From Prevotella sp. P5-108 (GTDB lineage Bacteria; Bacteroidota; Bacteroidia; Bacteroidales; Bacteroidaceae), in NCBI GenBank assembly GCA_963608705.1, contig CAVDHB010000048.1, positions 3,664 through 67,663 of the forward strand: 64,000 nucleotides of DNA. Direction: 5' to 3'. This document shows, in pieces, positions 3 through 35,445 of this stretch. A program made the position numbers and the translations under genes. Under the pieces are notes generated by a model. The model did not search any database, was not told the DNA's origin, and saw only the letters and a list, made by a program, of their open reading frames with translations. Every line of letters starts with the position of its first letter. Position 1 is the stretch's first letter.

Positions 3-2252
3 ATGGATTTGAAATGGGGCAGACCGGACGCACTGAAATTGACGAACGGACGTATTTCTGTGACATTGCCTCCCAAGGAAATTGCCTTGAATCGTGCTTT
101 CCGTCTTAATCTGACAGACGGAAACGGCAATCGTTTTTCCCGTTATCTTCCCTTGTCAGGTGACAAGGTGGATTTCTCCGTCTCGTTCTTTCCCGAAGGG
201 GGCTATCTCGTGGCAGGACAACCCTCCCGTATGGCGTTCGAGGCGTTGGACAGGTCTGGCAATGTGTCGGAGGTGACAGTCAGCGTGTTAGATCAGAATG
301 GAGATACGGTGGCCACTGACTCCACTTTTTACAAAGGGATGGGACTGCTTTTCTTCACACCCCAAAAGGGAGTGAAATACAAGGCGTATGCCACGGCTCC
401 CGATGGGCTTACCAAGTCTTTTGAGGTGCCGGAGGCGGTGTCGGCTCCCGGACTTCAGGTGGATACGGACGCAAAACGCATCAAGGTGCGTCTGTTGAGG
501 GATGAGTCTCAAAAGAGTGATGAGTTGTATTTTGCGGCTCAGGTAAGAGGGGCGGTTTGTTTTGCAGATAAATGGGATAATAATTCGGAGGAACTTGTAT
601 TCTATAAGCAGTTGTTTCCGGCTGGGGTGGTGCGTCTTACGTTGATGGACAAGAACCGACAGGTGATAGCTGAACGTTTGGTATGGAACAATCTTCCTTC
701 GGGTTTGAAAACCGAGGTGCGGACCGTGCGACAGAAGTATGCGCCGAGAAGCCTCGTGAAGATGTCGGTGGGCGTGACGGACAGACAAGGGAAACCTGTG
801 AAAGCCTCTTTGTCTATGGCCGTGACGGATGCGTCGGATACCTCCGTTGACTCGTGTTTCCAAATCCGAACCTCGTTGTGGCTCACTCCTGAATTGAAAG
901 GCTATGTGGAGAACCCCTCTTATTATTTAGGCCAGGGATGGCGGGCGATACGGGCTGCGGACTTGTTGATGATGACACAGGGATGGAGACGTTATGACCT
1001 TGGAAAGATTTGGCTGGGACAATACGACAAGCCGCAGAGAGAACCCGAGACGAGCTTTGCGGTGTCGGGAACCGTGAAGAAGTTCAGCCCTTTGGAGGGG
1101 AGAAAGAAATACATGGTCTTTATCCAGGGCACCAATAATTCGTTCTCTTCGTTTGCGGAGACTGATGAGAAAAAGCACTTCTCGTTCAAAAACATAGAAT
1201 ATCCGGAAGGTATGGGATTCACTCTCAGAGCTGCGGCCACGAAAAACAATAAGGGTAATCAAGAGATTATACTGGACAAGGAGGACACGCCTACTCTCAA
1301 TGCTTGTGTGCCGCAATACAAGGTAGACGGATTTGGACAGACTGTTGCCCGGTACATTCCCGGAAAGAGCCTGATGAGACAGTACGAGTTGCCGCCTTTG
1401 GTGGTGAAGGCGAAGATGTGGGGTACTTCCGACTATGACCGTTATTCCAACGAGGAGATTAACTCGGGAAAACAGAAAACGGTGAAGGACTTCCTGGAGG
1501 AGATGGGAATCAAGGTGACGGAGAAGCAGAATCCTGACGCATCGGCGAGAAGTGATTATATGACAAGCCTGACTGATACAAAACCTAAGAATGGGAGAAC
1601 CTATGACAATTTGCCGGATATTTACCGCCGTTTCCTTTACCAGTATTTCTATTATAAAGGTACGAAGGTGGTAGTCTTCATCAACAACCAGACCACCAAC
1701 GATGATCCGGGAAAACTGCTTGTCTATGGTACGGCTTTGAATGATATAAAAGAAATCACGCTTCTGAAAGACGTAAAGAGGGATATTGTGAACGATTTTG
1801 CGAGAGAGTCCGAGGATTTGCCAAAATCTTCTCATCTGCCAGACAATATCCTTTACTCCATGTACGACATTCCTTTGGGAAAGAAGACCGTGCCGGTGTT
1901 GGATGTACGTCTGAAAGTGGATAACAATCTGCGATACTCAGGCTTCCGCACTTTGCAAGGGAATCTGTACGAGTCGTCCATGGACCGTCGCACGGTTTAT
2001 CCGTTAGGATATCAGAAGCCGGTGGAATTTTATGCTCCCCAGTATGACACGGAGGCGAAACTGAAAAGCGACAAGCCGGATACCCGAAAGACAATTTATT
2101 GGAAACCAGTGATAAACATAGATGGGAAGACTCTCTCTGAAATCTCTTTCTACACTTCAGACCGTCCGTCCACTTCTTATAATGTGGTCATAGAGGGCGT
2201 TTCGGAACGTGGAGAATTGATACATGAGGTTCGGAAAATAGTGGTGGAATAA
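3..2252 (+). CDS. Large secreted/cell-surface protein, C-terminal 749 aa (5' end outside window); possibly MG2/alpha-2-macroglobulin-like fold
   Basis: Uninterrupted frame from window edge to TAA 2250-2252. All overlapping ORFs are short antisense shadows. The family guess is from memory of similar Bacteroidetes proteins, not a search. Confidence 0.6.
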   Translation: MDLKWGRPDALKLTNGRISVTLPPKEIALNRAFRLNLTDGNGNRFSRYLPLSGDKVDFSVSFFPEGGYLVAGQPSRMAFEALDRSGNVSEVTVSVLDQNGDTVATDSTFYKGMGLLFFTPQKGVKYKAYATAPDGLTKSFEVPEAVSAPGLQVDTDAKRIKVRLLRDESQKSDELYFAAQVRGAVCFADKWDNNSEELVFYKQLFPAGVVRLTLMDKNRQVIAERLVWNNLPSGLKTEVRTVRQKYAPRSLVKMSVGVTDRQGKPVKASLSMAVTDASDTSVDSCFQIRTSLWLTPELKGYVENPSYYLGQGWRAIRAADLLMMTQGWRRYDLGKIWLGQYDKPQREPETSFAVSGTVKKFSPLEGRKKYMVFIQGTNNSFSSFAETDEKKHFSFKNIEYPEGMGFTLRAAATKNNKGNQEIILDKEDTPTLNACVPQYKVDGFGQTVARYIPGKSLMRQYELPPLVVKAKMWGTSDYDRYSNEEINSGKQKTVKDFLEEMGIKVTEKQNPDASARSDYMTSLTDTKPKNGRTYDNLPDIYRRFLYQYFYYKGTKVVVFINNQTTNDDPGKLLVYGTALNDIKEITLLKDVKRDIVNDFARESEDLPKSSHLPDNILYSMYDIPLGKKTVPVLDVRLKVDNNLRYSGFRTLQGNLYESSMDRRTVYPLGYQKPVEFYAPQYDTEAKLKSDKPDTRKTIYWKPVINIDGKTLSEISFYTSDRPSTSYNVVIEGVSERGELIHEVRKIVVE

Positions 2253-2322
2253 TTTGGTAAGTCTTGTGTAAAGTGTTATCTTTGTAGCTCAGAATAGTAT
2301 TAATCTTTAAAAGACAAGCATT

Positions 2323-2766
2323 ATGAGAAACCCTTTTCGCAATTCGTTAATGGCCGTTGTTTGCCTTTTCGCTTTTTCCGCGACGGCTTCAGCGGACAAT
2401 GACAAGCCCATCCAGACGCATCAGCTTCCCGCGGCCGCACAGGCTTCTTTGAAATATTTCAAGACCAAGAAAGTGGCGTTGGCCACGGTGGACAGGTCTG
2501 TGGTTTCCCGAAGTTACGATGTGGTGTTCAATGACGGCACGAAGATAGAATTCAATCGTAACGGCCAGTGGACAGACATTGAATGTGAACGTTCTGGGGT
2601 GCCTTCTAATTTTGTGCCTTCCGTTATTCGCAACTACGTGAACAGTAATTACAGTGGCTCACGCATCGTGAAAATAGAGAGGGACGGAAAAGAGACGGAG
2701 GTGAAACTCTCCAATGGACTGGAGATAAAGTTCAACAAGAAATACCAGGTAGTGGAGATTGATTAG
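2323..2766 (+). CDS. PepSY-like (DUF2874-type) secreted protein
   Basis: Signal peptide MAVVCLFAFSATASA. Two internal repeats (YDVVFNDGTKIEFNRNGQWTDIE / KIERDGKETEVKLSNGLEIKFNKKYQ) typical of Bacteroides PepSY-like proteins. Confidence 0.75.
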   Translation: MRNPFRNSLMAVVCLFAFSATASADNDKPIQTHQLPAAAQASLKYFKTKKVALATVDRSVVSRSYDVVFNDGTKIEFNRNGQWTDIECERSGVPSNFVPSVIRNYVNSNYSGSRIVKIERDGKETEVKLSNGLEIKFNKKYQVVEID

Positions 2767-2869
2767 TTTTTCCCTGCCAACCATTATTCATAACGGTTGC
2801 CATCATTGTGTTGGGCAACCGTTATGCGTTTTTAGAATGGTAATCTTTTACTACGTCAGTGTAAGTTGT

Positions 2870-3829
2870 TCATCTTATATACTTTCTTGTAAATTCTTTC
2901 ACTCTTCGGGTGTATTCCACCCTGTGTGTCTTGTAAGACAGGGCGTGTTCAACTCCGGGGACTATCCACAACTCTTTGGGAGAGGGCTTGGCCTGGTAGA
3001 GCGGGTAGACCATGCGGGTTGGGACATAGGTGTCGTTTCCGCCATGAATGAAGAGCATGGGCTTGTGGCATTTGGCCACTTGTTTCAATGCGGAGGCTTC
3101 GCCGAAGCTCCAGCCGTAGCGTAGCTTGCACAAGGCACTGGCCGTGTAAAGCAGTGGGAATTTTGGTAATCCGAACATGGACTGTAGCTCATATCCGAAC
3201 TCGTCCCATGCGGAGGTATAGCCGCAATCCTCTACAAAACACCGGGCGTACGATTCTTTTTCGCCAGAAACCATCATGGTCGTGGCAGCTCCCATTGAGA
3301 TTCCATGTACGACTTGATGGGTGTGTCCTCCGAATAGGGTGTCAGCCACGGCCATCCACCGCAGTACGTCGAGCCTGTCTTTCCATCCCATCTGTATGGC
3401 CTGTCCACCGCTTTTTCCGTGATATTGCAAGTCGGGAAGGAGGATGTTGTAGCCTAAGTCGTGGTGGTAGAGATAGCCTATCATCAGCATTCTCCTTGCG
3501 GAGTCGGTATAGCCGTGGATGATGACGGCTGTGTGGGAGGTGTGTCTGGGTGCTTGGGCATAGAGTGCGTGCAGTCGGACACCTTCAGTGTTCGTGATGA
3601 AAGTGTCTTTCAGCGCTTTATGTAGCCTTAGGCTGTCTACCCATGGCTTGATAAAGGGATAGGCTGTGTACATCTCTTTGTCTGTCCGCAGGTCTTTGGC
3701 CGTTTTCTTCTCCGAGGGGGTGAGGGCAAACTGAATGAGATAGAGGCTGCCGCCCGTCACAATGCCAAGTAAAAGGACGAGGCATAGGAGTATGATTCCC
3801 GTGAGTTTGTTTCTTCTTTTCCGTGTCAT
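2870..3829 (-). CDS. Membrane-anchored alpha/beta-fold hydrolase
   Basis: N-terminal TM helix (LTGIILLCLVLLLGIVTGG), HGYTDS box, nucleophile elbow GISMGA (GxSxG), C-terminal IHGGNDTYVP. Confidence 0.85.
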   Translation of the reverse strand: MTRKRRNKLTGIILLCLVLLLGIVTGGSLYLIQFALTPSEKKTAKDLRTDKEMYTAYPFIKPWVDSLRLHKALKDTFITNTEGVRLHALYAQAPRHTSHTAVIIHGYTDSARRMLMIGYLYHHDLGYNILLPDLQYHGKSGGQAIQMGWKDRLDVLRWMAVADTLFGGHTHQVVHGISMGAATTMMVSGEKESYARCFVEDCGYTSAWDEFGYELQSMFGLPKFPLLYTASALCKLRYGWSFGEASALKQVAKCHKPMLFIHGGNDTYVPTRMVYPLYQAKPSPKELWIVPGVEHALSYKTHRVEYTRRVKEFTRKYIR

Positions 3830-4143: not shown

Positions 4144-6720
4144 ATGAGACTGACAACTTTCACAGCGATTGCAATGATGATTCCCTTTTGTGTGGCGGCT
4201 GAGGCGCAGCCTGTGCGGCAACGTCTTGACACGGGGTGGACGTTCAGACAGGGACGTTTGAATAATTGGTATCCGGCCGTGGTGCCTGGCACAGTGCATA
4301 CGGACTTGATGAGGAACAAGAAAATAGACGATCCTTATTTTCGCCTGAACGAACGGGGCGCACAATGGATAGACAAAGAGGATTGGATTTACCGTACTTC
4401 GTTCACGCTTCCTGCCGATATGAAAGACAAGGAGCGAATAGACCTTGTGTTCGAGGGGTTGGACACGTATGCGGATGTGTCGCTAAACGGACACAAGATT
4501 CTGTCTGCGGACAATATGTTCAGAGGCTGGAGGGAGTCTGTCAAACCTTACTTGAAAGACGGGGCGAATAGCCTTGAAGTGTATTTCCATTCTCCTATCA
4601 AACGGGATATTCCCAAATGGGATTCCATTCCGTTCCATTATGAGGCGGGCAATGACCAGTCTGAGAACGGAGGAGTGTTCGACAAGAAAGTCTCCGTGTT
4701 CGCCCGTAAGGCGGGGTATCATTATGGATGGGACTGGGGTCCCCGTTTGGTTACGTCTGGAATATGGCGGCCTGTATTTGTGGAGGCTTGGAGTGAGGCG
4801 AGGCTTTCGGACGTGTTCATGCGTCAGTTGTCCGTGTCTTCCCGGTTGGCGAAACTCGCTGGGGAGGTGGAAGTGACGGTGGACAAGGCGATGGCTGGAG
4901 CGGAGATTGTGATTGCGGACAAAGTGTCTGGCAAGAAATATGCCGTGAGAAAGGTGGATTTGCGGAAAGGTGTGAATAAGTTCTCTTTGCCGTTTTCTAT
5001 CAAGAACCCGAAACTCTGGTGGTGTAACGGATTGGGAGAACCTCATTTATATCAGTTTGTAACTACGGTGAGACACGGACAGAAAACCATAGACCGCAAA
5101 GAGGAGACCACGGGTATCCGTTCCATCCGTGTGGTACGCAAGCCCGACCAGTATGGCAAGACGTTCTATTTTGAGTTGAACGGAGTGCCAGTCTTTATGA
5201 AGGGGGCGAACTATATTCCGCAAGACGTTTTCTTGCCTCGTGTGACGCAGGCAGACTACGAGAAAACCATCAAGGATGCGGTGGATGTACACATGAACAT
5301 GCTGAGAGTATGGGGCGGGGGGATTTATGAGAACGATTTGTTCTACGACCTCTGCGACCGGAACGGTTTGTTGGTATGGCAAGACTTCATGTTCGCCTGT
5401 AGCTTGTATCCGGCGGAAGGAGAATGGCTGGAGAATGTGCGTCAAGAAGCCATTGACAATGTGCGCCGCCTGCGGAACCATCCTTGTATCGCCCTTTGGT
5501 GTGGAAACAATGAATGTCAGGACGCTTGGTTCAACTGGGGATACCGCAAGAACTACACGAAACAGAACCCGGAATGGGCTGCTAAAATATGGAAGCAATA
5601 CAATGACCAGTATTTTGACGTGCTTCCGAAGGTCGTGAAGGAATACGCCCCTGAGACGTTCTATACTTCTTCATCTCCTTTCGGACTGCCGAATCAGGGC
5701 AGTGATGACCACAACGGTGATTATCATTATTGGGAAGTATGGCAGGGGTTCAAGCCTGTATCGGCTTTCAACACACAGAAAAGCCGTTTCTTCAGCGAAT
5801 ACGGCTTCCAGTCGTTCCCCGACATTGAGTCCGTGAAGCGTTATGCGCCTGAAGCGGAGGATTGGAGCATTACTTCCGATGTGATGATGTCGCATCAAAG
5901 GGGAGGAGCGTTGGCCAATTCCCGTATGGAGAAAATCATGAATGAGGAATACCGCAAGCCGAAAGATTTTCCTTCTTTCCTTTACATGAGCCAAGTGTTG
6001 CAGGCGGACGCTATTAAAGTGGCGATGGAGGCGCATCGTCGCCAGAAACCTTACAACATGGGGTCTTTGGTATGGCAGCATAACGATTGCTGGCCGGTGG
6101 CCAGTTGGTCTTCAAGAGATTATTACGGACGTTGGAAAGCGCAACACTATTTCACGCGCAAGTCTTTTGCGGACATACTGGTTTCTCCTGTATGGGACGG
6201 ACAGAACAAGACGGTGGAAATCTACCTGGTTTCCGACCGCATGAAAAGTTGCAAGGGCGTATTGAGCTGGGAAGTACGGAAGTTCGACGGCACCTTGATT
6301 GGACAGTCGAAGAAAGAAGTGAGCATAGAGGCTAATGGCGGCAAGTGTGTGGCGCAGGTAGATGTGCGTAGTTTGCCCGGTTGGAATCCGAAGGAAACGT
6401 ATTTGAGGGCGGTTTACACTGCGGGAAAACACACATACGACAACAATTTCTTCTTCCTGCGTCAGAAAGAAGTGGATTTTCCCAAGCCGTCGGTCTCCAC
6501 TTCCTTGCGAAAAGTGGAAGACGGCTATGAGCTAAGTTTGAAAAGTAAGCAATTCGCCCGGGCGGCATGGATCAGTACTGGTGATGGGGATGCCTCATTC
6601 AGTGATAATTACATGGACTTGCTGCCTGGTAAGGAGGTAAAGGTGAAGATACACACGAAACTTCCGATGGAAACATTGAAAAAACAACTGAAAGTCACTA
6701 CGGTGGCTGATACTTATTGA
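4144..6720 (+). CDS. Glycoside hydrolase family 2 beta-mannosidase
   Basis: GYHYGWDWGPRLVTSGIWRPV and ALWCGNNEC (acid/base Glu region) motifs of GH2 beta-mannosidases. ATG 4144 gives a signal peptide (MRLTTFTAIAMMIPFCVAAEA); the ORF-track start 4048 adds 32 non-signal residues. Confidence 0.85.
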   Translation: MRLTTFTAIAMMIPFCVAAEAQPVRQRLDTGWTFRQGRLNNWYPAVVPGTVHTDLMRNKKIDDPYFRLNERGAQWIDKEDWIYRTSFTLPADMKDKERIDLVFEGLDTYADVSLNGHKILSADNMFRGWRESVKPYLKDGANSLEVYFHSPIKRDIPKWDSIPFHYEAGNDQSENGGVFDKKVSVFARKAGYHYGWDWGPRLVTSGIWRPVFVEAWSEARLSDVFMRQLSVSSRLAKLAGEVEVTVDKAMAGAEIVIADKVSGKKYAVRKVDLRKGVNKFSLPFSIKNPKLWWCNGLGEPHLYQFVTTVRHGQKTIDRKEETTGIRSIRVVRKPDQYGKTFYFELNGVPVFMKGANYIPQDVFLPRVTQADYEKTIKDAVDVHMNMLRVWGGGIYENDLFYDLCDRNGLLVWQDFMFACSLYPAEGEWLENVRQEAIDNVRRLRNHPCIALWCGNNECQDAWFNWGYRKNYTKQNPEWAAKIWKQYNDQYFDVLPKVVKEYAPETFYTSSSPFGLPNQGSDDHNGDYHYWEVWQGFKPVSAFNTQKSRFFSEYGFQSFPDIESVKRYAPEAEDWSITSDVMMSHQRGGALANSRMEKIMNEEYRKPKDFPSFLYMSQVLQADAIKVAMEAHRRQKPYNMGSLVWQHNDCWPVASWSSRDYYGRWKAQHYFTRKSFADILVSPVWDGQNKTVEIYLVSDRMKSCKGVLSWEVRKFDGTLIGQSKKEVSIEANGGKCVAQVDVRSLPGWNPKETYLRAVYTAGKHTYDNNFFFLRQKEVDFPKPSVSTSLRKVEDGYELSLKSKQFARAAWISTGDGDASFSDNYMDLLPGKEVKVKIHTKLPMETLKKQLKVTTVADTY

Positions 6721-6722
6721 CT

Positions 6723-7460
6723 ATGAGTTATACATTTGAGATTTGCGCCAACTCCGTGGATAGTTGTGTGGCGGCACAGAAAGGCGGTGCACAGCGTGTG
6801 GAACTATGCGCCGGTATGCCGGAAGGAGGGACGACTCCTTCTTATGGAACGATAAAATGGGCGAGGAAAAGCATTGACATCCGTCTGCATGTGATTATCC
6901 GTCCTCGGGGTGGTGACTTTCTTTACACGCCTCTTGAGCTGGATATGATGGAAGAAGACATTCGCATCGCAAAGGATTTGGGTGCGGACGGAGTGGTGTT
7001 CGGCTGTTTGCTTCCCGACGGACAACTGGACTTGCCGGCTATGAGTCGGTTGAAAAAGGCGGCAGGAAACTTGTCTGTCACCTGCCACCGGGCGTTTGAT
7101 TATGTGAAGAATCCGTCAGAGGCATTGGAGCAATTGATAGATCTGGGTGTGGACAGAGTGCTCACCTCTGGCCAGCAACCTACGGCTTTGCAAGGTGCCT
7201 CTCTCTTGGGGGAGTTGGTGAGACAAGCGAAAAAACGTATTATTATTATGCCTGGATGCGGAGTGAATGCAGGCAATATCAGAGAATTGGCCGACATTAC
7301 ACACGCCGAGGAGTTCCATTTCTCCGCAAGAGAGATACAGAAAAGCCGGATGAGACTTCGCAATCCGGCACTTTCCATGGGAAATCCAGACATGGATGAG
7401 TATGCGCATCCCGTTACCACGGCAGAAAAAGTGAAGGCTACGATTGCCGCTTTGAGGTGA
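6723..7460 (+). CDS. cutC: Copper homeostasis protein CutC family
   Basis: MSYTFEICANSVDSCVAAQKGGAQRVELCAGMPEGGTTPSYG is the conserved CutC N-terminus. The ATG lies 2 nt after the mannosidase stop. Confidence 0.9.
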   Translation: MSYTFEICANSVDSCVAAQKGGAQRVELCAGMPEGGTTPSYGTIKWARKSIDIRLHVIIRPRGGDFLYTPLELDMMEEDIRIAKDLGADGVVFGCLLPDGQLDLPAMSRLKKAAGNLSVTCHRAFDYVKNPSEALEQLIDLGVDRVLTSGQQPTALQGASLLGELVRQAKKRIIIMPGCGVNAGNIRELADITHAEEFHFSAREIQKSRMRLRNPALSMGNPDMDEYAHPVTTAEKVKATIAALR

Positions 7461-7500
7461 AAGGCTGACTAACTAGTGGATTGGATTTATTATATTATAG

Positions 7501-7536
7501 GTAGTGGCAGACATAGTGGTCTGCCACTACTTTTAT
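7501..7536 (+). terminator. Rho-independent terminator after cutC
   Basis: Perfect 12-bp stem GTAGTGGCAGAC / GTCTGCCACTAC with 6-nt loop, followed by TTTTAT. Confidence 0.8.
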
Positions 7537-7693
7537 AACAAAACTCGCCGCATGACGAGGCACTTCCTACTGATTGGTGGTACGATTATTGCAAATCCAT
7601 CTGCATGTATTCTAAAATGTTATGGTATAAGACTATACAAGAAGCTATCTTCCGACCACTCATGATTCCAAACCCCGACAGCACACACAATCA

Positions 7694-7719
7694 GTAGAGA
7701 CTCGATTCATCGAGTCTCC
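7694..7719. repeat. Palindromic repeat GTAGAGACTCG-ATTCAT-CGAGTCTCC, related to the 55.3 kb fold-back element
   Basis: Differs from 55271-55296 (GTAGAGACGCG-ATTCAT-CGCGTCTCC) only at two mutually compensating positions that keep the dyad. Confidence 0.7.
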
Positions 7720-7793
7720 ACCCAGCAGTGGAGATTGCATCATTGTGAGCAGAGAATTGGGAGGAAGCGCATTTGAACCAATATGAACCAATT

Positions 7794-8000
7794 TTCTGTA
7801 TCTCTACATAAGAGATACAGAAATCGGCTGCAAATATATTAAAAATATTGCACATACAGTGAGTTGGGACGAAAAAAATAACTCACATTATCTTCCAAAA
7901 TTTATCGCTGTTTACTTTCTTTTACAGTTCGTGAGTCCCTTACTCGTACATTATCAATGAATTACATGGCATTCTGTATCTCTTATGTAGAGACGCGGAA
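7794..8000. promoter_or_regulatory. Putative invertible CPS promoter segment flanked by inverted recombination sites; -7 box TATATTTG on minus strand (7838-7831), OFF orientation
   Basis: Left site is 7794-7822, TTCTGTATCTCT-ACATA-AGAGATACAGAA. Right site is 7972-8000, TTCTGTATCTCT-TATGT-AGAGACGCGGAA. The spacers are reverse complements. The only TAnnTTTG match inside the segment is on the minus strand. Confidence 0.65.
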
Positions 8001-8256
8001 GAAACCGGGAAACATAACCCGATATGGCTTTCAAAAAGCAGAGCGTATGACACACAATTTGCTACTCACGGGCTTGTCCGCATCATGCATGCGGAAAGCT
8101 GAAAGACATAAAAGTATTGAAGATTAGTGGAAGTCAGTCTATTGGTTTTTCAATGCTGTGACACATCTCACACCCATGTAACTTGGAAAAGACGCTCTTT
8201 TCCGGGGAAGCCGGGATGTATTCTTCGCACAGCGCATTTTTCAAGTCGTTAACTTT

Positions 8257-10320
8257 ATGTGGTTCGTCGTCAAGACCGAAGTTTTCACCGAGCGGCGTTC
8301 GATAGACACCCTGCGTGAGAAATTCAAGGACACAATAGCCGACATCTATTTTCCCTTAAGAAAGAGGGTCTATAAAGATGACCAAGGGGAAGAGAAAGCG
8401 CGTTTCGTGCCTGTCCTGCGGGGACTGTTCTTCATCAGGGTCCAGGATGAAAGGCGTTTGAGCTGGATTCTTTCCCCGTACGGGTATTTCATGTACAAAG
8501 GCGTTGACTACACGGGAGGTGCGGAGACAGAACGCTTCTTCCTCACCCAGGCGCATCTTCTTTGCGCCGACCGCAAGTCATTGACATTGGGGGAAATCAT
8601 CAGACAGGCGAGAATCCCCGACGAGGAAATGGACCGCTTCATCTATTATACCGATAAACTCGGTGAGGGCATTGAGGGCCTGAGTATCGTGGACCAAAGA
8701 TACGGCGACCTCGTACGGGTGAATGACACCATACGCATTCTCAGCGGACCTTTGACGGGTTGGGTCGGCGTAATCAGGCAAATCAAACACAAGGGCAGGA
8801 AGGACCGTCATCTTCTGGTACGTTTCGGAAACAACCACTGTCTTAACATCTCCAATATCCGCCAGTACGACATGCGGATAGAGCACGAGGCGACGAAGGG
8901 CGCAAAGTCCGAGGAGGTGGGCGTATGGCGCGCCATAGACCAGATGACAGGCTATCTGCAGGCCAAGAATCCCGCCGGCAACGCGGCGGACACATTACGG
9001 AATATTTTCAAAGACTATCAAAAGAAAACCGCGGTCTACCGCAACCGCCGTATGTCAGACATCGCATACAGCGACAAGACAGCCGAAATGAAAGTCGCCC
9101 GGCGGAAAGAGGTTCTTGGGCATATTGACGAATCCATGCGGAACAATTTCCTTATACTCGCCAATTATTTCAAGGCGGACGGTGAGACCGTCGACCGGGG
9201 ATTAAAAGAACTCATCCCCGATGTGGTACTCCGTCCCTTCCTCACCCCCACTTCAGGCGTATCCATTCCACAAGGACAAGAGTATGCGGTTTTGTGCCAT
9301 AACGAAATCACAGAGCTCATCCTTCGCCGCAACCTCCGTGCTTTTTTCCGGGGCGAAGAATACGACTCCGGGAAGTACGCCCCCGTCTTTGAGGAAGACT
9401 ACGAGTATTACGCCCACTTCGCACTTTTGAAAACAGAGGAGGGCAAACTTAAGATTATCTGCTCATGGGGAGGTTTCTATGATTATTACGCCTCACAGAA
9501 CAAGGAAGAGCGGACGAAATTCATCGATGACTTAGAAGCGAAAAAATACCCCCGTCTGCATTACCTGCTGACGGAAAGCCCTTACAAGTTCGAGAGTACG
9601 AACGGCATAGGCGGCTTTTCCCTGGAAACAGACATGAATTACACAACCGATCCAGAGGAATTAGGCCGAGAGGCGAGCGAATACCTCACTCATAATCCCT
9701 CACTCCTCACCCAACTCACAGCCGCTGCCGTGGAAGTGTGGCAAGGAGCGCGCCTACTGGTTTGGCGGAAGTTGCTCCAACGTTACGTCCTGCTCCATAA
9801 GGTGCCGGTCACAGACCAACCTTCCGTCATCACTCACGACACCAAACTGGAAGAGGCGTTTGTGAAGGCGGACGGCAAGCTCGACATGACGAAGGTGGCC
9901 GAAACTTTGACAGCAAGTAAAGGAGTCATTGAGGAACATTTGGAAAACAAAGAGGTGGCGGAAGCCGTTTTCAAGTTTCTTTCCACCTCCTTGGTGTATG
10001 CCACCCATTTCGCCCAAGACGAGCTGTACAACTATGTCTGTGACACGTTCAACCCCGACAGAACCTTGTCCGGGTTGTTCAATCGCATTGTCGAACAATG
10101 CGGGGAGGCATCCAATAGTCGTTCCATCGTCAGGCATCTGCACAAAGGCATGGCCGAGTTGCAAGAGCTGGACTCTTGGAGATATTTCAAGTTCCCTTCA
10201 TTTCTCAAGCAAACGAGAAAGACAGACAAGGTAATTTCTTCCTTTCGTCCATCCACAACGCCTGGCCGGCTTGCAAAAAGGCGATCCGTCAAAGTAAGCA
10301 CTCCTGAAAAAGTATCCTAA
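8257..10320 (+). CDS. UpxY-like NusG-family transcription antiterminator with ~470-aa uncharacterised C-terminal extension
   Basis: The N-terminal ~215 aa shows an NGN-like region (WFVVKTEVFTERRSIDTLREK...FVPVLRGLFFIRV), the UpxY-typical IPDEEMDRFIYY, and a KOW (GDLVRVNDTIRILSGPLTGWVGVIRQIKHKGRKDRHLLVRF). The remaining sequence has no motif I recognise. Confidence 0.8.
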   Translation: MWFVVKTEVFTERRSIDTLREKFKDTIADIYFPLRKRVYKDDQGEEKARFVPVLRGLFFIRVQDERRLSWILSPYGYFMYKGVDYTGGAETERFFLTQAHLLCADRKSLTLGEIIRQARIPDEEMDRFIYYTDKLGEGIEGLSIVDQRYGDLVRVNDTIRILSGPLTGWVGVIRQIKHKGRKDRHLLVRFGNNHCLNISNIRQYDMRIEHEATKGAKSEEVGVWRAIDQMTGYLQAKNPAGNAADTLRNIFKDYQKKTAVYRNRRMSDIAYSDKTAEMKVARRKEVLGHIDESMRNNFLILANYFKADGETVDRGLKELIPDVVLRPFLTPTSGVSIPQGQEYAVLCHNEITELILRRNLRAFFRGEEYDSGKYAPVFEEDYEYYAHFALLKTEEGKLKIICSWGGFYDYYASQNKEERTKFIDDLEAKKYPRLHYLLTESPYKFESTNGIGGFSLETDMNYTTDPEELGREASEYLTHNPSLLTQLTAAAVEVWQGARLLVWRKLLQRYVLLHKVPVTDQPSVITHDTKLEEAFVKADGKLDMTKVAETLTASKGVIEEHLENKEVAEAVFKFLSTSLVYATHFAQDELYNYVCDTFNPDRTLSGLFNRIVEQCGEASNSRSIVRHLHKGMAELQELDSWRYFKFPSFLKQTRKTDKVISSFRPSTTPGRLAKRRSVKVSTPEKVS

Positions 10321-10370
10321 GATACATGGCCAAGTATCTTAAGATACATCGCCAAGTATCCTAAGATACT
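10311..10370. repeat. Three tandem 22-bp units each containing the palindrome GTATC-N4-GATAC
   Basis: AGTATCCTAAGATACA (10311), AGTATCTTAAGATACA (10333), AGTATCCTAAGATACT (10355), with exact 22-bp phasing. The first copy overlaps the stop codon of the upxY-like gene. Confidence 0.85.
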
Positions 10371-10463
10371 TTGAAAAGTGACCCTAGACATAGAAAACAT
10401 GGAGGGGATTATTTGCAGATATGGGGATAAGTCCTTATCTTCGCAAAAAACAATCTTGACGGT

Positions 10464-12035
10464 ATGATGGAACGACGCAGAAAACTTTACCCCATAGGAA
10501 TACAGACTTTCTCGAACATACGGGAAGGCGACTATCTGTATATAGACAAGACGGAGTATGTGTACTGTATGGCCACATCTGACGCCAAGTACATATTCCT
10601 CAGTCGTCCACGCAGGTTTGGGAAATCTCTGCTCACCTCCACTCTGGAAAGTTATTTCTCCGGGAAAAAGGAATTGTTCAAAGGCTTGGCCATTGAGAAG
10701 CTGGAGAAGGAATGGACGGAATACCCAGTGCTTCACTTTGACATGAGCTTGGGTAAGTACATGGACAAGGAACAGCTGGAAGAATACTTGTGCTATCAGC
10801 TTCTTGACAAAGAATCTGCTTTTGGCATAACAAATCCTGTTAAAGGAACAAACAACCGTCTGACAAACCTTATCAAGACGGCATATAATAAGATCGGCAA
10901 GAAAGTCGTCATTCTCATAGATGAATATGACGCCCCTTTGCTCGATGTGGTGCATGAGGAGAAGAATCTCCCTGTCCTACGTGACGTGATGCGCAACTTC
11001 TACAGTCCGTTGAAAGGTTGCGACCCCTATTTGCGCTTCGTCTTCCTGACTGGAATAACGAAGTTCTCACAGCTCAGCATCTTCAGCGAGCTGAACAACA
11101 TCGACAACATCAGTATGGATGAGCGTTACGCTGCCGTATGTGGCATAACCGAAGAGGAGATGCTCACTCAAATGGACAACGACCTGAACCTGTTGGCGGA
11201 TAATTTGAAAATGACCAAGGAGGATGCTCTGTCAAAATTGAAGGAAAACTACGACGGCTATCACTTCACGTGGCCTTCCCCTGACATCTACAATCCTTTC
11301 AGTTTGCTCACGGCGTTGTCTAAAGGTAAGATCGGATCTTACTGGTTCGGTAGCGGAACTCCCACCTACCTGATAGAGATGCTGGCAAAATATCATGTCA
11401 CACCTCAGAGAATAGGCGGAATGAGTATTCCCGCCGATGCTTTTGATGCCCCGACAGAACGGCTGATAGATATATCACCACTGCTTTACCAAAGTGGATA
11501 TATCACCATCAAAGGCTATTCCTACATTACGGAGCTGTACACATTGGACATACCTAACAAGGAGGTGAGGGTAGGCTTGATGAAAAGCCTGCTTCCGAAT
11601 TATGTCAGCGTCCATACGAACATGGGGCTTTCCACAATAGGACAGATGTACGGGCGCATATATGAGGATGACATGGACGGAGCGTTAGAACTCTTGCAAA
11701 CATTTCTCTCCACCGTTCCCTATTGCGACCATACCGACTACGAGGGGCATTATCAGCAGATGCTCTACGTGATTTTCAGCATCTTGGGAATGTATACCGA
11801 TGTAGAGGTACGCACTCCTCGTGGAAGAGTAGACATAGTAATGCGTTCACCTCATACCTTATATATTATGGAGTTGAAACTCGACAAGGGTGCAGACGTG
11901 GCGATGAACCAGATAGACTTGAAGCAGTATCCTGAGCGTTTCCGCCTGTACAGACTGCCTATCGTTAAGGTGGGTATCAGTTTCGACAGCGGAACACACA
12001 CACTTGGGGAATGGAAGATTACGCAAGACGCTTAA
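10464..12035 (+). CDS. AAA-ATPase-like domain protein with C-terminal PD-(D/E)XK nuclease-like domain (PF09820/PF08011-type)
   Basis: YPIGIQTFSNIREGDYLYIDKTEY...SRPRRFGKSL N-terminus. C-terminal GRVDIVMRSPHTLYIMELKLDK (D..E.K). This family is very common in Bacteroides. Confidence 0.8.
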   Translation: MMERRRKLYPIGIQTFSNIREGDYLYIDKTEYVYCMATSDAKYIFLSRPRRFGKSLLTSTLESYFSGKKELFKGLAIEKLEKEWTEYPVLHFDMSLGKYMDKEQLEEYLCYQLLDKESAFGITNPVKGTNNRLTNLIKTAYNKIGKKVVILIDEYDAPLLDVVHEEKNLPVLRDVMRNFYSPLKGCDPYLRFVFLTGITKFSQLSIFSELNNIDNISMDERYAAVCGITEEEMLTQMDNDLNLLADNLKMTKEDALSKLKENYDGYHFTWPSPDIYNPFSLLTALSKGKIGSYWFGSGTPTYLIEMLAKYHVTPQRIGGMSIPADAFDAPTERLIDISPLLYQSGYITIKGYSYITELYTLDIPNKEVRVGLMKSLLPNYVSVHTNMGLSTIGQMYGRIYEDDMDGALELLQTFLSTVPYCDHTDYEGHYQQMLYVIFSILGMYTDVEVRTPRGRVDIVMRSPHTLYIMELKLDKGADVAMNQIDLKQYPERFRLYRLPIVKVGISFDSGTHTLGEWKITQDA

Positions 12036-12890: not shown

Positions 12891-13304
12891 ATGAAAAGGC
12901 GTATTGTCTTGGATACAAATTGTTTGTTGCAGATAATTTCTCGCAAAAGCAAGAACTATTTCCTGTGGAATGGATTCTTGAATGGTGACTATTGGCTTTG
13001 TTATACGACAGAAGGAGTACGAAGAATTATAGGAACGAAAGCCAATCCAGTCATTGCTTCAATGGTGTTGAACATTATATGCGAAGCACCTAACACGTTA
13101 AGGGTTGACGCCCGTTATCATTGGAATCTGATTACGGAGGATTCGAATGACAATAAGTTTGTTGACTGTGCCATATTCTGTAATGCGGATTATATTGTTT
13201 CTGAAGATAAACATTTTAAGGTCTTGAAAAAAGTTAAATTTCTAAAAGTTTTCGTCATTCGATTAGAAGAATTTGCAAGACTGTTTAGAACACAAGAACA
13301 ATGA
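12891..13304 (+). CDS. PIN-domain toxin (TIGR00305-like)
   Basis: IVLDTNCLL N-terminal acidic motif and DNKFVDCAIFCNADYIVSEDKHF C-terminal motif. Confidence 0.75.
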   Translation: MKRRIVLDTNCLLQIISRKSKNYFLWNGFLNGDYWLCYTTEGVRRIIGTKANPVIASMVLNIICEAPNTLRVDARYHWNLITEDSNDNKFVDCAIFCNADYIVSEDKHFKVLKKVKFLKVFVIRLEEFARLFRTQEQ

Positions 13305-18801: not shown

Positions 18802-20535
18802 ATGAATATCAAGCCTGCTGATAAAACAATAAAAGCTCTTCTAAAATCAGGCCGTAAATTTATGATACCACGATTTCAGAGAGATTACTCTTGGGAAAAG
18901 AAAAATTGTGAAGAGTTCCTTGAAGATATAATTAAGGGATTAATTTATAAAAACGGTAAGTTAGGAACTTCTTCATATTTTTTGGGAACAATGCTTTTCA
19001 TTGGTAACTTTGATGAGAAAAGTGATAAAGAAATTCAAATTGTAGACGGACAACAACGCATTACAACAATAACAATATTGTTTTCGGTTATTTCCGATAT
19101 TTTTAGAGAAAAGGGTGAAGAGAAATTAAGTGAATTGATTTTCAGCTATATAATGACAAGTGATGATGATGGGAATTCTGTCAGAATTATAAAAAGTGAA
19201 AGTAGTTACCCATATTTTGCTTTTTATATCCAAGATAGAGAAAAAACGCAAATGCCTGAACCATCGTCTGAAGAAGAATTATGTATTCAAAGTACGTATA
19301 AGTTGTTTAAAAACCGTTTGGATGAGAAAAACCTAAAATCCTTTTTGGAAAAGAACTGTGAGAACTTTGATGTTGGTGTTGGACTTATTGAAATACTAAA
19401 GGCTATAAGAGACCAAATTTTGAATTGTATATTTATTTCAATATCTACAGATGACAAATTACAGGCTTATAGAATTTTTGAGATTCTTAATGCAAAAGGT
19501 AAAAAACTCGCAGCAATAGATTTGATTAAAAATAGATTGTTTGAGAAACTTCCCCAAACAGAACCTGCCGATTTTGCGAAATGCAAATGGGATGAACTAA
19601 AAAGAATAATAAACGAGTGTGATGTGGCTTCCGTTGGGATAGGGACTTTTTACCGACATTTTTGGAATTCTTGTTACAAACAAACTGGGACAAATCAATT
19701 GTATGACAAATTCTTGTCAATGATTAATAAAAGTGATTATGAATCGTTCCTTAATTCTTTGGTTGTTAATGCAAAATATTATGTACAAATAATAAAGCCT
19801 TTAAGAGAAAATTACGAAAATAGGAAAGAGTATTTTTGGCTAGTACAAAGTTTTAAAGTCCTTTCTGATTACTTCGGAATTGCACAAGTTCGTGTCGTAT
19901 TGATGGCATTGTTATGGGCGAAAGACAACAACCGCATATTCACTGCAGATTTTAAGCAATCAATCTTGTTTTTAGAACATTTCCATTTCGCTTATACTGC
20001 TTTATTATCTGGCAAGGCAAATAAACTTGATGGTATTTATTCAAAATTCGCAATAGCTTTAAGGAAAAGTAACAGTAAAAATCAAAGTAAGCAGATAATA
20101 AAGACGAATCTTTATGACTGCTTGAAAGTATTGCTTCCAACTGAAGAACAGTTTACAGAAAAATTTTTATCTCTTAGTTATAGTAAAAAGTCTGCGCCAT
20201 CTAATATGAAGTGCAAATATGCACTTCTTAAATTGAACTGCTATTATCAAGGAAAGGAAATTTTTGAAGATGACTCTTCAATAGAGCACATCATCCCTGA
20301 GTGTGAAGAAAGTGATGCCAATAACATTGGCAATTTAATTATATTAGAACAAAAATTGAATACAGAAGCCGATAAAAAGGATTATTCTGAAAAACAGCTG
20401 ATATATAAAAAATCTAATTACAAATGGATTAGAAAATTTTCAGAAACGCATCCATCATGGATACAAGATATGATAAATGATAGGGCTAAAGAAATGGCGA
20501 CTTTATTTTACAATAAGATTATCGTCTTCAATTAA
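18802..20535 (+). CDS. DUF262/DUF1524 (GmrSD-like) putative type IV restriction/nuclease protein
   Basis: N-terminal FMIPRFQRDYSWEKKN and VDGQQRITT (DUF262/ParB-like). C-terminal SIEHIIPE...NIGNLIILEQKLNTEA (DUF1524 His-Me finger). Confidence 0.85.
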   Translation: MNIKPADKTIKALLKSGRKFMIPRFQRDYSWEKKNCEEFLEDIIKGLIYKNGKLGTSSYFLGTMLFIGNFDEKSDKEIQIVDGQQRITTITILFSVISDIFREKGEEKLSELIFSYIMTSDDDGNSVRIIKSESSYPYFAFYIQDREKTQMPEPSSEEELCIQSTYKLFKNRLDEKNLKSFLEKNCENFDVGVGLIEILKAIRDQILNCIFISISTDDKLQAYRIFEILNAKGKKLAAIDLIKNRLFEKLPQTEPADFAKCKWDELKRIINECDVASVGIGTFYRHFWNSCYKQTGTNQLYDKFLSMINKSDYESFLNSLVVNAKYYVQIIKPLRENYENRKEYFWLVQSFKVLSDYFGIAQVRVVLMALLWAKDNNRIFTADFKQSILFLEHFHFAYTALLSGKANKLDGIYSKFAIALRKSNSKNQSKQIIKTNLYDCLKVLLPTEEQFTEKFLSLSYSKKSAPSNMKCKYALLKLNCYYQGKEIFEDDSSIEHIIPECEESDANNIGNLIILEQKLNTEADKKDYSEKQLIYKKSNYKWIRKFSETHPSWIQDMINDRAKEMATLFYNKIIVFN

Positions 20536-26959: not shown

Positions 26960-27796
26960 ATGGCAAAAGAGAAGATAAAAAGGAAAAACGTTGAGATGGC
27001 ATTTATTAATGTCGTTCTTTATCCAACAGAAAAGCAAAAACCTGAAGAGTATGTAAAATTGCTCTATTCCATTATGGCTGGTCGTGTGATGATAAATAGT
27101 CGAAATTCATACCGTTCAACATTGCTACGAGCTTTTGATTTTGAGGGTGATTATTATCACGGTTACTTTTGTAATGCCATATTTCTAAAGGATGATTTCT
27201 GGGCGTTAAATATTAGAGATAATCTGCTTGAAGAGGCAGTTATTGATCCTAATAAGGTATTAGATCCCAAGTATATGGAATTTTGGTTTTATCCTAAATA
27301 TCATAGGTTTGCTGTTCGTAAATCGGACGTTACGAAAATTGTAAAATTCTTGATTGGCAGTTTTAAATTCAAGTTGGGAGATGAAGATAGTTTTGCTGTC
27401 AATATAGAAAAGGATAAGAATATAATTGAAAGAATAATCAATTCAGAAGGCATAGTAAAGATAAAGATTTCCATTAGATATTCCAATAATGACAATTGTG
27501 AGGACTGGGAAGATTTGGATTCAGTATTACGTAATTCGGATACGAATAAGGCAGAATTATCTTTGCAATCAAGCAATGCTAAGCCAATACAGGCTAAAAA
27601 GAATTGGTTGTTGAGAGCCTTTTTGGTTCTAAGTAAATCTTATGGTACAGCTACAGCCAAAATTATCAACGAAAATGGATACATAGAAGATGTAGATACG
27701 AAAAGGTATCCAAATACACGTACAGTAGATTTCAATCAAAACCCAGAAAAAGACATAAGAGATTGCATTGAGGGTATCGCGCAAAATAAAGTATAG
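26960..27796 (+). CDS. DUF4747-like cytoplasmic protein (no glycan-enzyme motif)
   Basis: AFINVVLYPTEKQKPEEYVKLLYSI N-terminus, L-PKYMEFWFYPKYHRFAV, and IKISIRYSNNDNCEDWED. These resemble my recollection of the DUF4747 layout, but this is unverified. No TM or signal peptide. Confidence 0.5.
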   Translation: MAKEKIKRKNVEMAFINVVLYPTEKQKPEEYVKLLYSIMAGRVMINSRNSYRSTLLRAFDFEGDYYHGYFCNAIFLKDDFWALNIRDNLLEEAVIDPNKVLDPKYMEFWFYPKYHRFAVRKSDVTKIVKFLIGSFKFKLGDEDSFAVNIEKDKNIIERIINSEGIVKIKISIRYSNNDNCEDWEDLDSVLRNSDTNKAELSLQSSNAKPIQAKKNWLLRAFLVLSKSYGTATAKIINENGYIEDVDTKRYPNTRTVDFNQNPEKDIRDCIEGIAQNKV

Positions 27797-34445: not shown

Positions 34446-34850
34446 CTAAACCTTTTCTATGATTTCTATCATCTGGGCAGCAGTGACAACCTTTGGGGTA
34501 TGTGGAAAATGCTTTAGATTCCCTGTTACCAAGAAACTGTCTTCTTTGCTTAAGGTCACTTCATAGAACACTCGGTCATCCTCATCTGGCATATCACCAT
34601 TGTAAGGATAACGAGAAGAGTCTATGCCATTTTGTCTGATGAAATCTATCAACTCACTAATTTGCTCCTCTGAAAGTTTGAATTTCTTCCTATGCAAAAC
34701 ATTTTTGTATTCTGCAACGATTTCATCACTATATAGAGGTGTGATTCTATGCATGAAAAGACATTCCAAGACTTTTACTGTGGATGCATCAGAATTGTGA
34801 GTGATGAGAGCTGAGACGAGTACGTTTGTGTCAATAACAGCGTATACCAT
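34446..34850 (-). CDS. PIN-domain toxin (TIGR00305-like)
   Basis: VYAVIDTNVLVSALI, DEIVAEYKNVL, DEDDRVFYEV, FLVTGNLKHF. Confidence 0.85.
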   Translation of the reverse strand: MVYAVIDTNVLVSALITHNSDASTVKVLECLFMHRITPLYSDEIVAEYKNVLHRKKFKLSEEQISELIDFIRQNGIDSSRYPYNGDMPDEDDRVFYEVTLSKEDSFLVTGNLKHFPHTPKVVTAAQMIEIIEKV

Positions 34851-35150: not shown

Positions 35151-35445
35151 AATTGTTCTATTAAAAACTCAATGATAGCAATATGCCATCTATTTGATGG
35201 CAAATATACTAATTCCAGTGTGAATTCATTCGGTGTTCTCTTAATGTTTTATGTAATTTAACTAATATGAGGATAAGAAGTATGGTTTATCTACTTATGG
35301 AACGATTGTTGGCTCCATATACGGATAAAGCATATTTCTTTTCATAATCCATCAGTGTTGAACTGGGAATACATTTATTTGCACGAATATATGAGCATTA
35401 TCCGCATTTATTCGCGCATATATCATACTGACACATTTTGTTTTG

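Follow-up and report, generated by a model that had tools for sequence, protein, structure and literature searches.

In Bacteroides fragilis and Phocaeicola vulgatus, the tyrosine recombinase Tsr, which is encoded upstream of an exopolysaccharide (EPS) locus, has been shown to flip a distant promoter as well (PMC12940148). The Tsr switches (B. fragilis BF2766; P. vulgatus BVU2677/BVU2684), which serve EPS and fimbrial loci, have the recombinase gene just upstream of the invertible promoter, and the enzymes flip distant promoters of the same motif in trans, with redundancy among the paralogs (PMC12940148). Here we describe a 207-bp segment bounded by two inverted sites at positions 7794-8000 of a 64-kb stretch of Prevotella sp. 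P5-108 (assembly GCA_963608705.1, contig CAVDHB010000048.1; 64,000 nucleotides, the whole of the DNA analysed, called the window below). The segment lies ahead of a polysaccharide gene cluster and very probably is one of the invertible promoters (invertons) that serve polysaccharide loci in Prevotella/Segatella. Among the described systems it resembles the Tsr-type switches most closely, and many related Segatella loci carry a linked recombinase in the same place as the Tsr switches do. The two groups differ in host, which is Prevotellaceae here, and in the repeat motif, which is TACTTNNNANGTAANNGAA for Tsr and TTCTGTATCTCT-N5-AGAGAT(A/T)CAGAA for the Segatella family. The window copy, unlike the Tsr switches, has no linked recombinase, and the Segatella family is known from sequence alone.

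The locus also resembles the Mpi-dependent capsule (PSA-PSH) promoters of B. fragilis, in which a short (~170-220 bp) invertible promoter is followed by a upxY-family antiterminator gene and a long polysaccharide operon (PMC12632263). Several such loci occur per genome in a mixture of ON and OFF states in both cases, and those of B. fragilis are also under UpxY/UpxZ control. The initial annotation had pointed to this Bacteroides-like capsular polysaccharide (CPS) promoter layout, and a short promoter-bearing inverted segment before a NusG/UpxY-family gene and polysaccharide genes is indeed what the window holds. The enzyme linked to the Segatella family is a tyrosine recombinase, and the first gene of the operon encodes a protein of 687 aa instead of a UpxY protein of ~175 aa. 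The Mpi enzyme, a serine invertase, works globally, and its gene does not accompany each locus. Many CPS loci of Bacteroides thetaiotaomicron carry invertible promoters too (PMC12632263). They differ from the present family in genus and in repeat sequence. The B. thetaiotaomicron CPS switches are adjoined by tyrosine integrase genes, in the same layout as the recombinase-linked Segatella loci. In Escherichia coli fimS, too, a promoter flanked by short inverted repeats is the substrate of small two-domain tyrosine recombinases (FimB and FimE); fimS is 314 bp long, has 9-bp repeats and requires IHF and Lrp. The Xer/dif core site, with two ~11-bp arms and a 6-8-bp centre, follows a plan similar to that found here, and neither fimS nor dif shows sequence similarity to the sites of this study. 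A literature search returned no publication on this switch family or on capsule phase-variation machinery in Prevotella/Segatella, although large inverton surveys may list such loci, and a search for the 12-mer of the site returned only unrelated papers.

Two inverted 29-bp sites sharing a 12-nt left arm and 9 of 12 positions of the right arm had been proposed for this segment, and coordinates and sequences were reproduced in full (Table 1). A repeat search scored the two as a 29-nt inverted repeat that is 90% complementary (26/29 identical positions) and whose arms enclose 149 nt. Counted from the inner end of each site, the first 22 nt are the same in both and the mismatches fall at 3 positions, all in the right outer arm. 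The central spacers, ACATA and TATGT, are exact reverse complements, as had been claimed, and the same pairing rule recurs across ~33 loci. When the pattern TTCTGTATCTCT-N5-AGAGA was searched on both strands of the window with at most 3 mismatches, 6 matches were found against 0.20 expected, a number reached in none of 100 shuffles. Within the interior, CAAATATA at 7831-7838 reads TATATTTG on the minus strand and is the sole TAnnTTTG on either strand, which agrees with the promoter proposed earlier. This -7 box lies 8 nt from the left site and is directed away from the downstream polysaccharide operon (OFF), and the core promoter block CAATATTTTT-nn-TAnnTTTGCA is retained around it. A second conserved block, GTAAyTnnnTGATAAT, was seen at the promoter-distal end of all family interiors, and in the window it occupies 7949-7965 on the complementary strand. 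For the inverted orientation of the window switch, the predicted junctions are AGAGATACAGAA joined to TGCCATGTAATTC (also written AGAGATACAGAA joined to TGCCATGTAATTCATTG) and TATATTTGCAGCCGAT joined to TTCTGTATCTCT.

The sites belong to a family that is spread over Prevotella and Segatella. The pattern TTCTGTATCTCT-N5-AGAGA was scanned on both strands of a collection with one genome per species (GTDB, 596 Gb), which gave 109 loci, ~35 of them from Prevotella/Segatella and many from the S. copri complex. From the 17 specified bases and the size of the collection we estimated that ~70 matches would arise by chance; the matches outside Prevotella were single, had an unmatched outer arm and were about as numerous as chance predicts. 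The ~35 Prevotella/Segatella loci have in common the full dyad TTCTGTATCTCT-TAnnW-AGAGAT(A/T)CAGAA, with TTCTGTATCTCT as the inner and TTCTGAATCTCT as the outer arm. A relaxed search found a partner site for nearly all of them and gave 33 paired switches, the window included, in which the distance from start to start was mostly 175-179 nt (203 or 299 in three). The 5-nt centres vary among loci (TATGT, TACGT, TACAT, TATTA, TACCA, TACGA, TACAA, TATGA and TATAT), while within each pair the spacers are reverse-complementary, apart from two exceptions that differ by 1-2 nt. Such matching within pairs is expected if strand exchange occurs in the spacer and needs identical partners. The recurrence of the dyad in pairs, with spacers that vary between pairs and match within them, bears out the earlier proposal that these are recombination sites.

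The position of the promoter is fixed. Each of the 33 paired switches contains exactly one TAnnTTTG box, placed 7-9 nt from one inner arm and reading outwards. Scored relative to the upxY-type gene or to the recombinase side, 11 switches were ON, 17, among them the window, were OFF, and 5 could not be assigned. At 11 loci the whole module of the window was found, i.e., a site, an interior of ~147-150 nt, a second site, a conserved leader and a long NusG-like gene whose product is 57-68% identical in amino acids.

Inversion of homologous switches of the same family occurs in nature. Five metagenome contigs (L110-L114) have the same flanks as Segatella hominis BCRC 81118 (L023), with 200/200 identical positions on the left and 90/90 on the right. 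Their sites keep the same orientation, being 97% and 100% identical when read directly, whereas the interior is only 57.8% identical in direct reading and 97.3% identical as the reverse complement. As sites and flanks are colinear while the interior is reversed, the breakpoints of the inversion lie inside the 29-bp sites. A second pair of loci, L032 and L108, has colinear flanks and an interior that is 53% identical directly and 90% identical as the reverse complement; these two are too diverged to tell whether the outer arms stay with the flanks, a question that L023 and L110 settled. Further look-ups of S. hominis-type loci (P0009, P0014) returned only ON contigs, the state opposite to that of the isolate L023. 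The contig of this isolate (BCRC 81118, Scaffold36) ends ~95 nt past the switch, and mixed orientations in culture might explain the break. The earlier suggestion that the segment inverts is thus supported at the level of the family by both comparisons.

The inversions also decide against a reading without recombination, in which the sites would be palindromic operators, RNA hairpins or terminators, or ends of miniature inverted-repeat transposable elements (MITEs) or insertion sequences flanking a promoter. Each site has nearly perfect dyad symmetry, which would allow it to bind a dimer or to form a hairpin, and the sole Rfam match spans only the repeat-bounded segment, where it probably reflects the symmetry; this match was a plant microRNA precursor with E = 0.022 and 25.9 bits against a gathering score of 211, so that Rfam returned nothing real for the segment. 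Operators, hairpins and MITE ends are nevertheless excluded at the family level because homologous segments are observed inverted between otherwise identical flanks, with breakpoints in the sites. Neither operators nor terminators would be expected to show the mixture of ON and OFF over 28 loci, the co-variation of the spacers or the linked recombinase. The loci showed no transposase, no target-site duplication and no empty site, and the element keeps a constant place with respect to upxY-type genes. For the window itself this reading is hardly credible.

The candidate enzyme of the family is encoded beside the switch in many species. Clustering of open reading frames (ORFs) found a protein of ~318 aa next to the distal site in 16 loci, and when pseudogenised or truncated copies detected by tblastn are counted, at least 18 of ~37 loci are linked to it. 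Its gene is on the operon strand, at a distance of 23-128 nt from the distal site. The protein carries the Pfam domains Phage_int_SAM_5 and Phage_integrase and the box-II motif ARHSWAT...LGHxSETTTQIYL, and it is distantly similar to XerA, XerC, XerD and integron integrases; by these domains, motif and similarity it is a two-domain Xer-like tyrosine recombinase. Such an enzyme fits a simple core site composed of two 11-12-bp arms and an asymmetric centre of 5-7 bp. In the linked loci the OFF-state promoter is directed at the 3' end of the recombinase gene, an arrangement by which orientation may control the recombinase. Two distant homologs of the recombinase (35-39% identity) were also met near matches to the pattern, one directly abutted by a match in Candidatus Pullibacteroides (L063, ~1990-3010) and one at 1819-2769 in a Prevotellaceae metagenome-assembled genome (L069), ~250 nt away from a site at 1543-1571. 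The outer arms of these two sites misfit the family dyad, and they may be chance matches and not members of a wider site family.

The linkage bears on the question of which class of enzyme flips the switch. A global serine invertase of the Mpi or Hin type could be responsible, with the tyrosine recombinases beside the homologs as bystanders. A region of ~180-210 bp ahead of a upxY-type gene does resemble the Mpi-controlled promoters of B. fragilis (PMC12632263), and the window is without a linked recombinase. However, at least 18 of ~37 loci, from many species, have a tyrosine recombinase gene directly beside the switch, its orientation and distance being fixed, and a 29-bp dyad with a co-varying, asymmetric centre of 5-7 bp suits an Xer/Cre-type core better than a Hin-type one. 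Hin-type sites measure 26 bp and have a 2-bp core. The motif ARACGTWCGT, which we take to be the Mpi-type repeat, had no match in 7774-8000, and the window as a whole held 12 matches with at most 1 mismatch against 11.1 expected. A serine invertase is therefore very unlikely, and the homolog-linked Xer-like recombinase family is preferred.

Several observations weigh against an invertible promoter at the window itself. The right outer arm, AGAGACGCGGAA, is only a 9/12 match, and the interior, at 51-65% identity to the other interiors, has diverged further than any in the family. The canonical -33 TTTG is absent from the window switch, as it is from most family members. The statement that no recombinase gene is adjacent was correct and extends to the whole 64-kb window, in which Pfam and NCBIfam scans found none and tblastn gave only noise; a 212-aa ORF at 10317-10955, checked as a possible remnant, has no Pfam domain. 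Only the OFF orientation has been seen, in the window and in a Logan contig (L115, from run SRR13434651) of 1.76 kb, which is 100% identical to window 6118-7879 and ends in the interior. Exact-match scans of JGI metagenomes with a 27-mer of the interior and a 20-mer of cutC returned no other copy.

These points would suit a frozen relic, i.e., a former invertible promoter that lost its recombinase and whose right outer arm decayed, leaving the locus permanently OFF or under another promoter. Consistent with this, no recombinase gene lies within 64 kb, cutC stands in the position that the recombinase gene has in the homologs, OFF is the state in both assemblies, and the arm and the interior have diverged as described. 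The 66-aa remnant to which the recombinase is reduced at L049 shows that switch-adjacent recombinase genes do decay. On the other hand, the inner 22 nt of the two sites are identical (22/22) and the spacers exactly complementary even though the interior has drifted to ~60% identity with its relatives, and sites conserved amid a drifted interior indicate selection or ongoing exchange on the sites. The differences in the right outer arm (AGAGAC..., ...GCGGAA) all recur in other members, e.g., in AGAGATGCGGAA of L032 and AGAGACACAGAA of L039, and both interior blocks and the tandem repeat beside the left site are intact. The lack of a linked enzyme has a precedent as well, since orphan and linked switches coexist in one S. 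hominis genome, where L030 has AsnC, ExbD and ExbB genes upstream in place of a recombinase and L023 has its own, and action in trans is documented in Bacteroidales (PMC12940148). We consider the relic improbable on balance.

The preferred reading is an active switch. Being without a recombinase of its own, the window copy is an orphan, and it is presumably served in trans by a paralog elsewhere in the genome. Since only OFF has been seen, we infer its present activity from homology and from the intact sites, and on these grounds it is quite probably still active as an orphan switch. Look-ups with exact proteins (the 687-aa protein, its NCBI copy P0001, the 91% identical relative P0002, and CutC) returned no contigs. 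The organism is evidently rarely sampled, as the nearest CutC is 76% identical and no other long copy is present in the collections.

According to the mechanism that we propose, each site would consist of two recombinase-binding arms of ~11-12 bp around an asymmetric crossover region of 5-7 bp. An Xer-like tyrosine recombinase of the homolog-linked family would pair both sites, exchange strands in the central spacer and thereby invert the segment. In the present orientation, the promoter would fire leftwards into the spacer between cutC and the switch, where minus-strand hairpins (7722-7693, 7559-7544) may stop it, and the operon would be OFF. After inversion, it would read via the right site and a conserved, structured leader of ~190 nt into the NusG/UpxY-like gene that begins at 8257 and on through the polysaccharide operon of ~25 kb (ON).

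A tandem repeat abutting the left site had been put forward as a possible accessory-protein site. The element itself proved to be conserved, and the binding role is only a candidate one. Of the 28 oriented loci, 17 carry two copies of TGAACCAA (L090 has three) at -20/-10 or -21/-11 relative to the distal site. The operon-proximal side never has them, and their presence is independent of the ON or OFF state; in recombinase-linked loci they lie between the stop codon of the recombinase gene and the site. Because it recurs at this fixed distal place in the census, the repeat is a conserved part of the module. The switch recombinase has no obvious arm-binding domain, and the tandem TGAACCAA repeat is a candidate site for an accessory factor. 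A further reading, which we regard as doubtful, is that the family is more than a plain ON/OFF inverton and that the window orphan is one node of a network run by a few recombinases. As part of it, the fixed TGAACCAA repeat may bind an accessory factor or the recombinase itself, by which one direction of switching could be favoured or recombinase expression tied to the state of the switch. This coupling is conceivable because, in linked loci, reading from the OFF-state promoter runs antisense into the gene of the recombinase.

The features of the locus are collected in Table 1.

Table 1. Positions of the switch elements and neighbouring features in the window
Feature	Position	Strand	Remarks
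cutC, upstream neighbour	6723-7460	+	Pfam CutC, E = 9e-72; fills the place of the recombinase gene in homologous loci
Degenerate third site, TTCCATTTCTCC-GCAAG-AGAGATACAGAA	7314-7342	+	in the 3' end of cutC; exact 12-mer at 7331-7342
Tandem direct repeat, TGAACCAATA TGAACCAATT	7774-7793	+	abuts the distal site; family census
Distal (left) site: outer arm TTCTGTATCTCT, spacer ACATA, inner arm AGAGATACAGAA	7794-7822		perfect 12-5-12 palindrome; fits the family consensus
Invertible interior, 149 bp	7823-7971		family interiors 146-150 bp; both conserved blocks kept
Bacteroidetes-type -7 box, TATATTTG	7831-7838	-	points left (OFF); predicted transcription start ~7824, minus strand
Proximal (right) site: inner arm TTCTGTATCTCT, spacer TATGT, outer arm AGAGACGCGGAA	7972-8000		spacer exactly reverse-complementary to that of the left site
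5' leader of the operon	8001-8256	+	256 nt; core 8024-8217 conserved and structured
First operon gene, 687-aa NusG/UpxY-like protein	8257-10320	+	C-terminal extension of ~470 aa, fold unmatched
Polysaccharide biosynthesis operon	10464-33389	+	Pfam and NCBIfam scans; ~23 kb

Downstream of the switch, the core of the leader shares 76-85% identity with the leaders at 12 other loci that have a long UpxY-like gene, and the leader of L023 matched over 72 nt at 89% up to the end of the contig. The alignment of these leaders (A1) gave a consensus structure of 61 pairs, 8 of which show compensatory changes, and an Rfam scan found no matching family for the leader. The leader RNA is a candidate recognition element for the NusG-like antiterminator. 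The protein encoded by the first gene, which had been described as UpxY-like, is so only in its first ~200 residues, where the NusG/UpxY fold is found (Pfam NusG, 22.4 bits). NCBIfam UpxY (NF033644) takes in proteins of ~165-175 aa with full-length scores of at least 100 bits, and the 687-aa protein, with 45.7 bits against this curated cut-off of 100, falls outside it in score and in length. It appears to work like a NusG paralog and is not a standard UpxY. The AlphaFold model has a predicted local distance difference test (pLDDT) score of 78.9 and confirmed the N-terminal NGN/KOW fold; in Foldseek, the best matches of the model were NusG proteins over only ~200 columns, with no further meaningful template modelling score (TM-score). 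Residues ~215-660 are modelled confidently (pLDDT mostly 75-95), yet they have no Pfam domain and no fold match in the PDB. At 11 loci, the gene after the same switch codes for a homolog of 520-690 aa. Such homologs were also seen at the head of many Segatella polysaccharide loci, where nearly all are unnamed in the source records and a few are labelled 'hypothetical' or 'uncharacterized protein'. As a second part of the doubtful reading given above, the leader and the NusG-like protein of 520-690 aa, with its C-terminal ~470 aa, may together make up an antitermination module that is new and confined to Prevotellaceae.

The operon encodes glycosyltransferases of GT2 and GT4, an EpsG-type polymerase, pyruvyl transferases and a WecB/TagA-family enzyme, interspersed with defence-like genes, and no upxZ was recognised at the window locus. 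The defence-like or selfish genes lie in the operon or just past it (10464-12035, 12891-13304, 18802-20535, 26960-27796, 34446-34850 and 35443-37653) and include an AAA-ATPase with a PD-(D/E)XK nuclease domain, two PIN-domain proteins, a GmrSD-type restriction enzyme, a DUF4747 protein and a ResIII/SNF2 helicase. They are mostly on the strand of the operon and would therefore be co-transcribed in the ON state. Upstream of the switch, a GH2 glycosidase gene is present in addition to cutC, and a terminator-like hairpin lies downstream of cutC at 7496-7535. Terminator-like hairpins of the minus strand occur at 7693-7722 and 7544-7559, between cutC and the switch, and could stop OFF-state transcripts ahead of antisense entry into cutC.

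The degenerate third site in cutC was considered as an additional recombination partner for a shufflon-like inversion and was judged unlikely, as its spacer differs at 4/5 positions and the match mostly encodes EFHFSARE. Its left arm and the AGAGAG code for the conserved CutC motif (E)FHFSARE, and window-specific I-Q-K codons complete the 12-mer, which is either a matter of chance or a relic of the arrival of the module beside cutC.

The element is a further example of the polysaccharide invertons of Bacteroidales. As the mechanism is already familiar from Bacteroides, the finding extends known biology and does not change it. In much of the world population, the dominant gut bacteria are Segatella (Prevotella) copri and its relatives, which have been little studied genetically. 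For these bacteria, the family offers three handles, namely the site consensus TTCTGTATCTCT-TAnnW-AGAGAT(A/T)CAGAA paired at ~176 bp, the fixed position of the promoter and a candidate recombinase family, which allow switches to be found and their ON or OFF state to be scored directly in genomes and metagenomes. They may serve studies of phage resistance, immune evasion and strain persistence, as well as the genetic locking of polysaccharide loci in the ON or OFF state.

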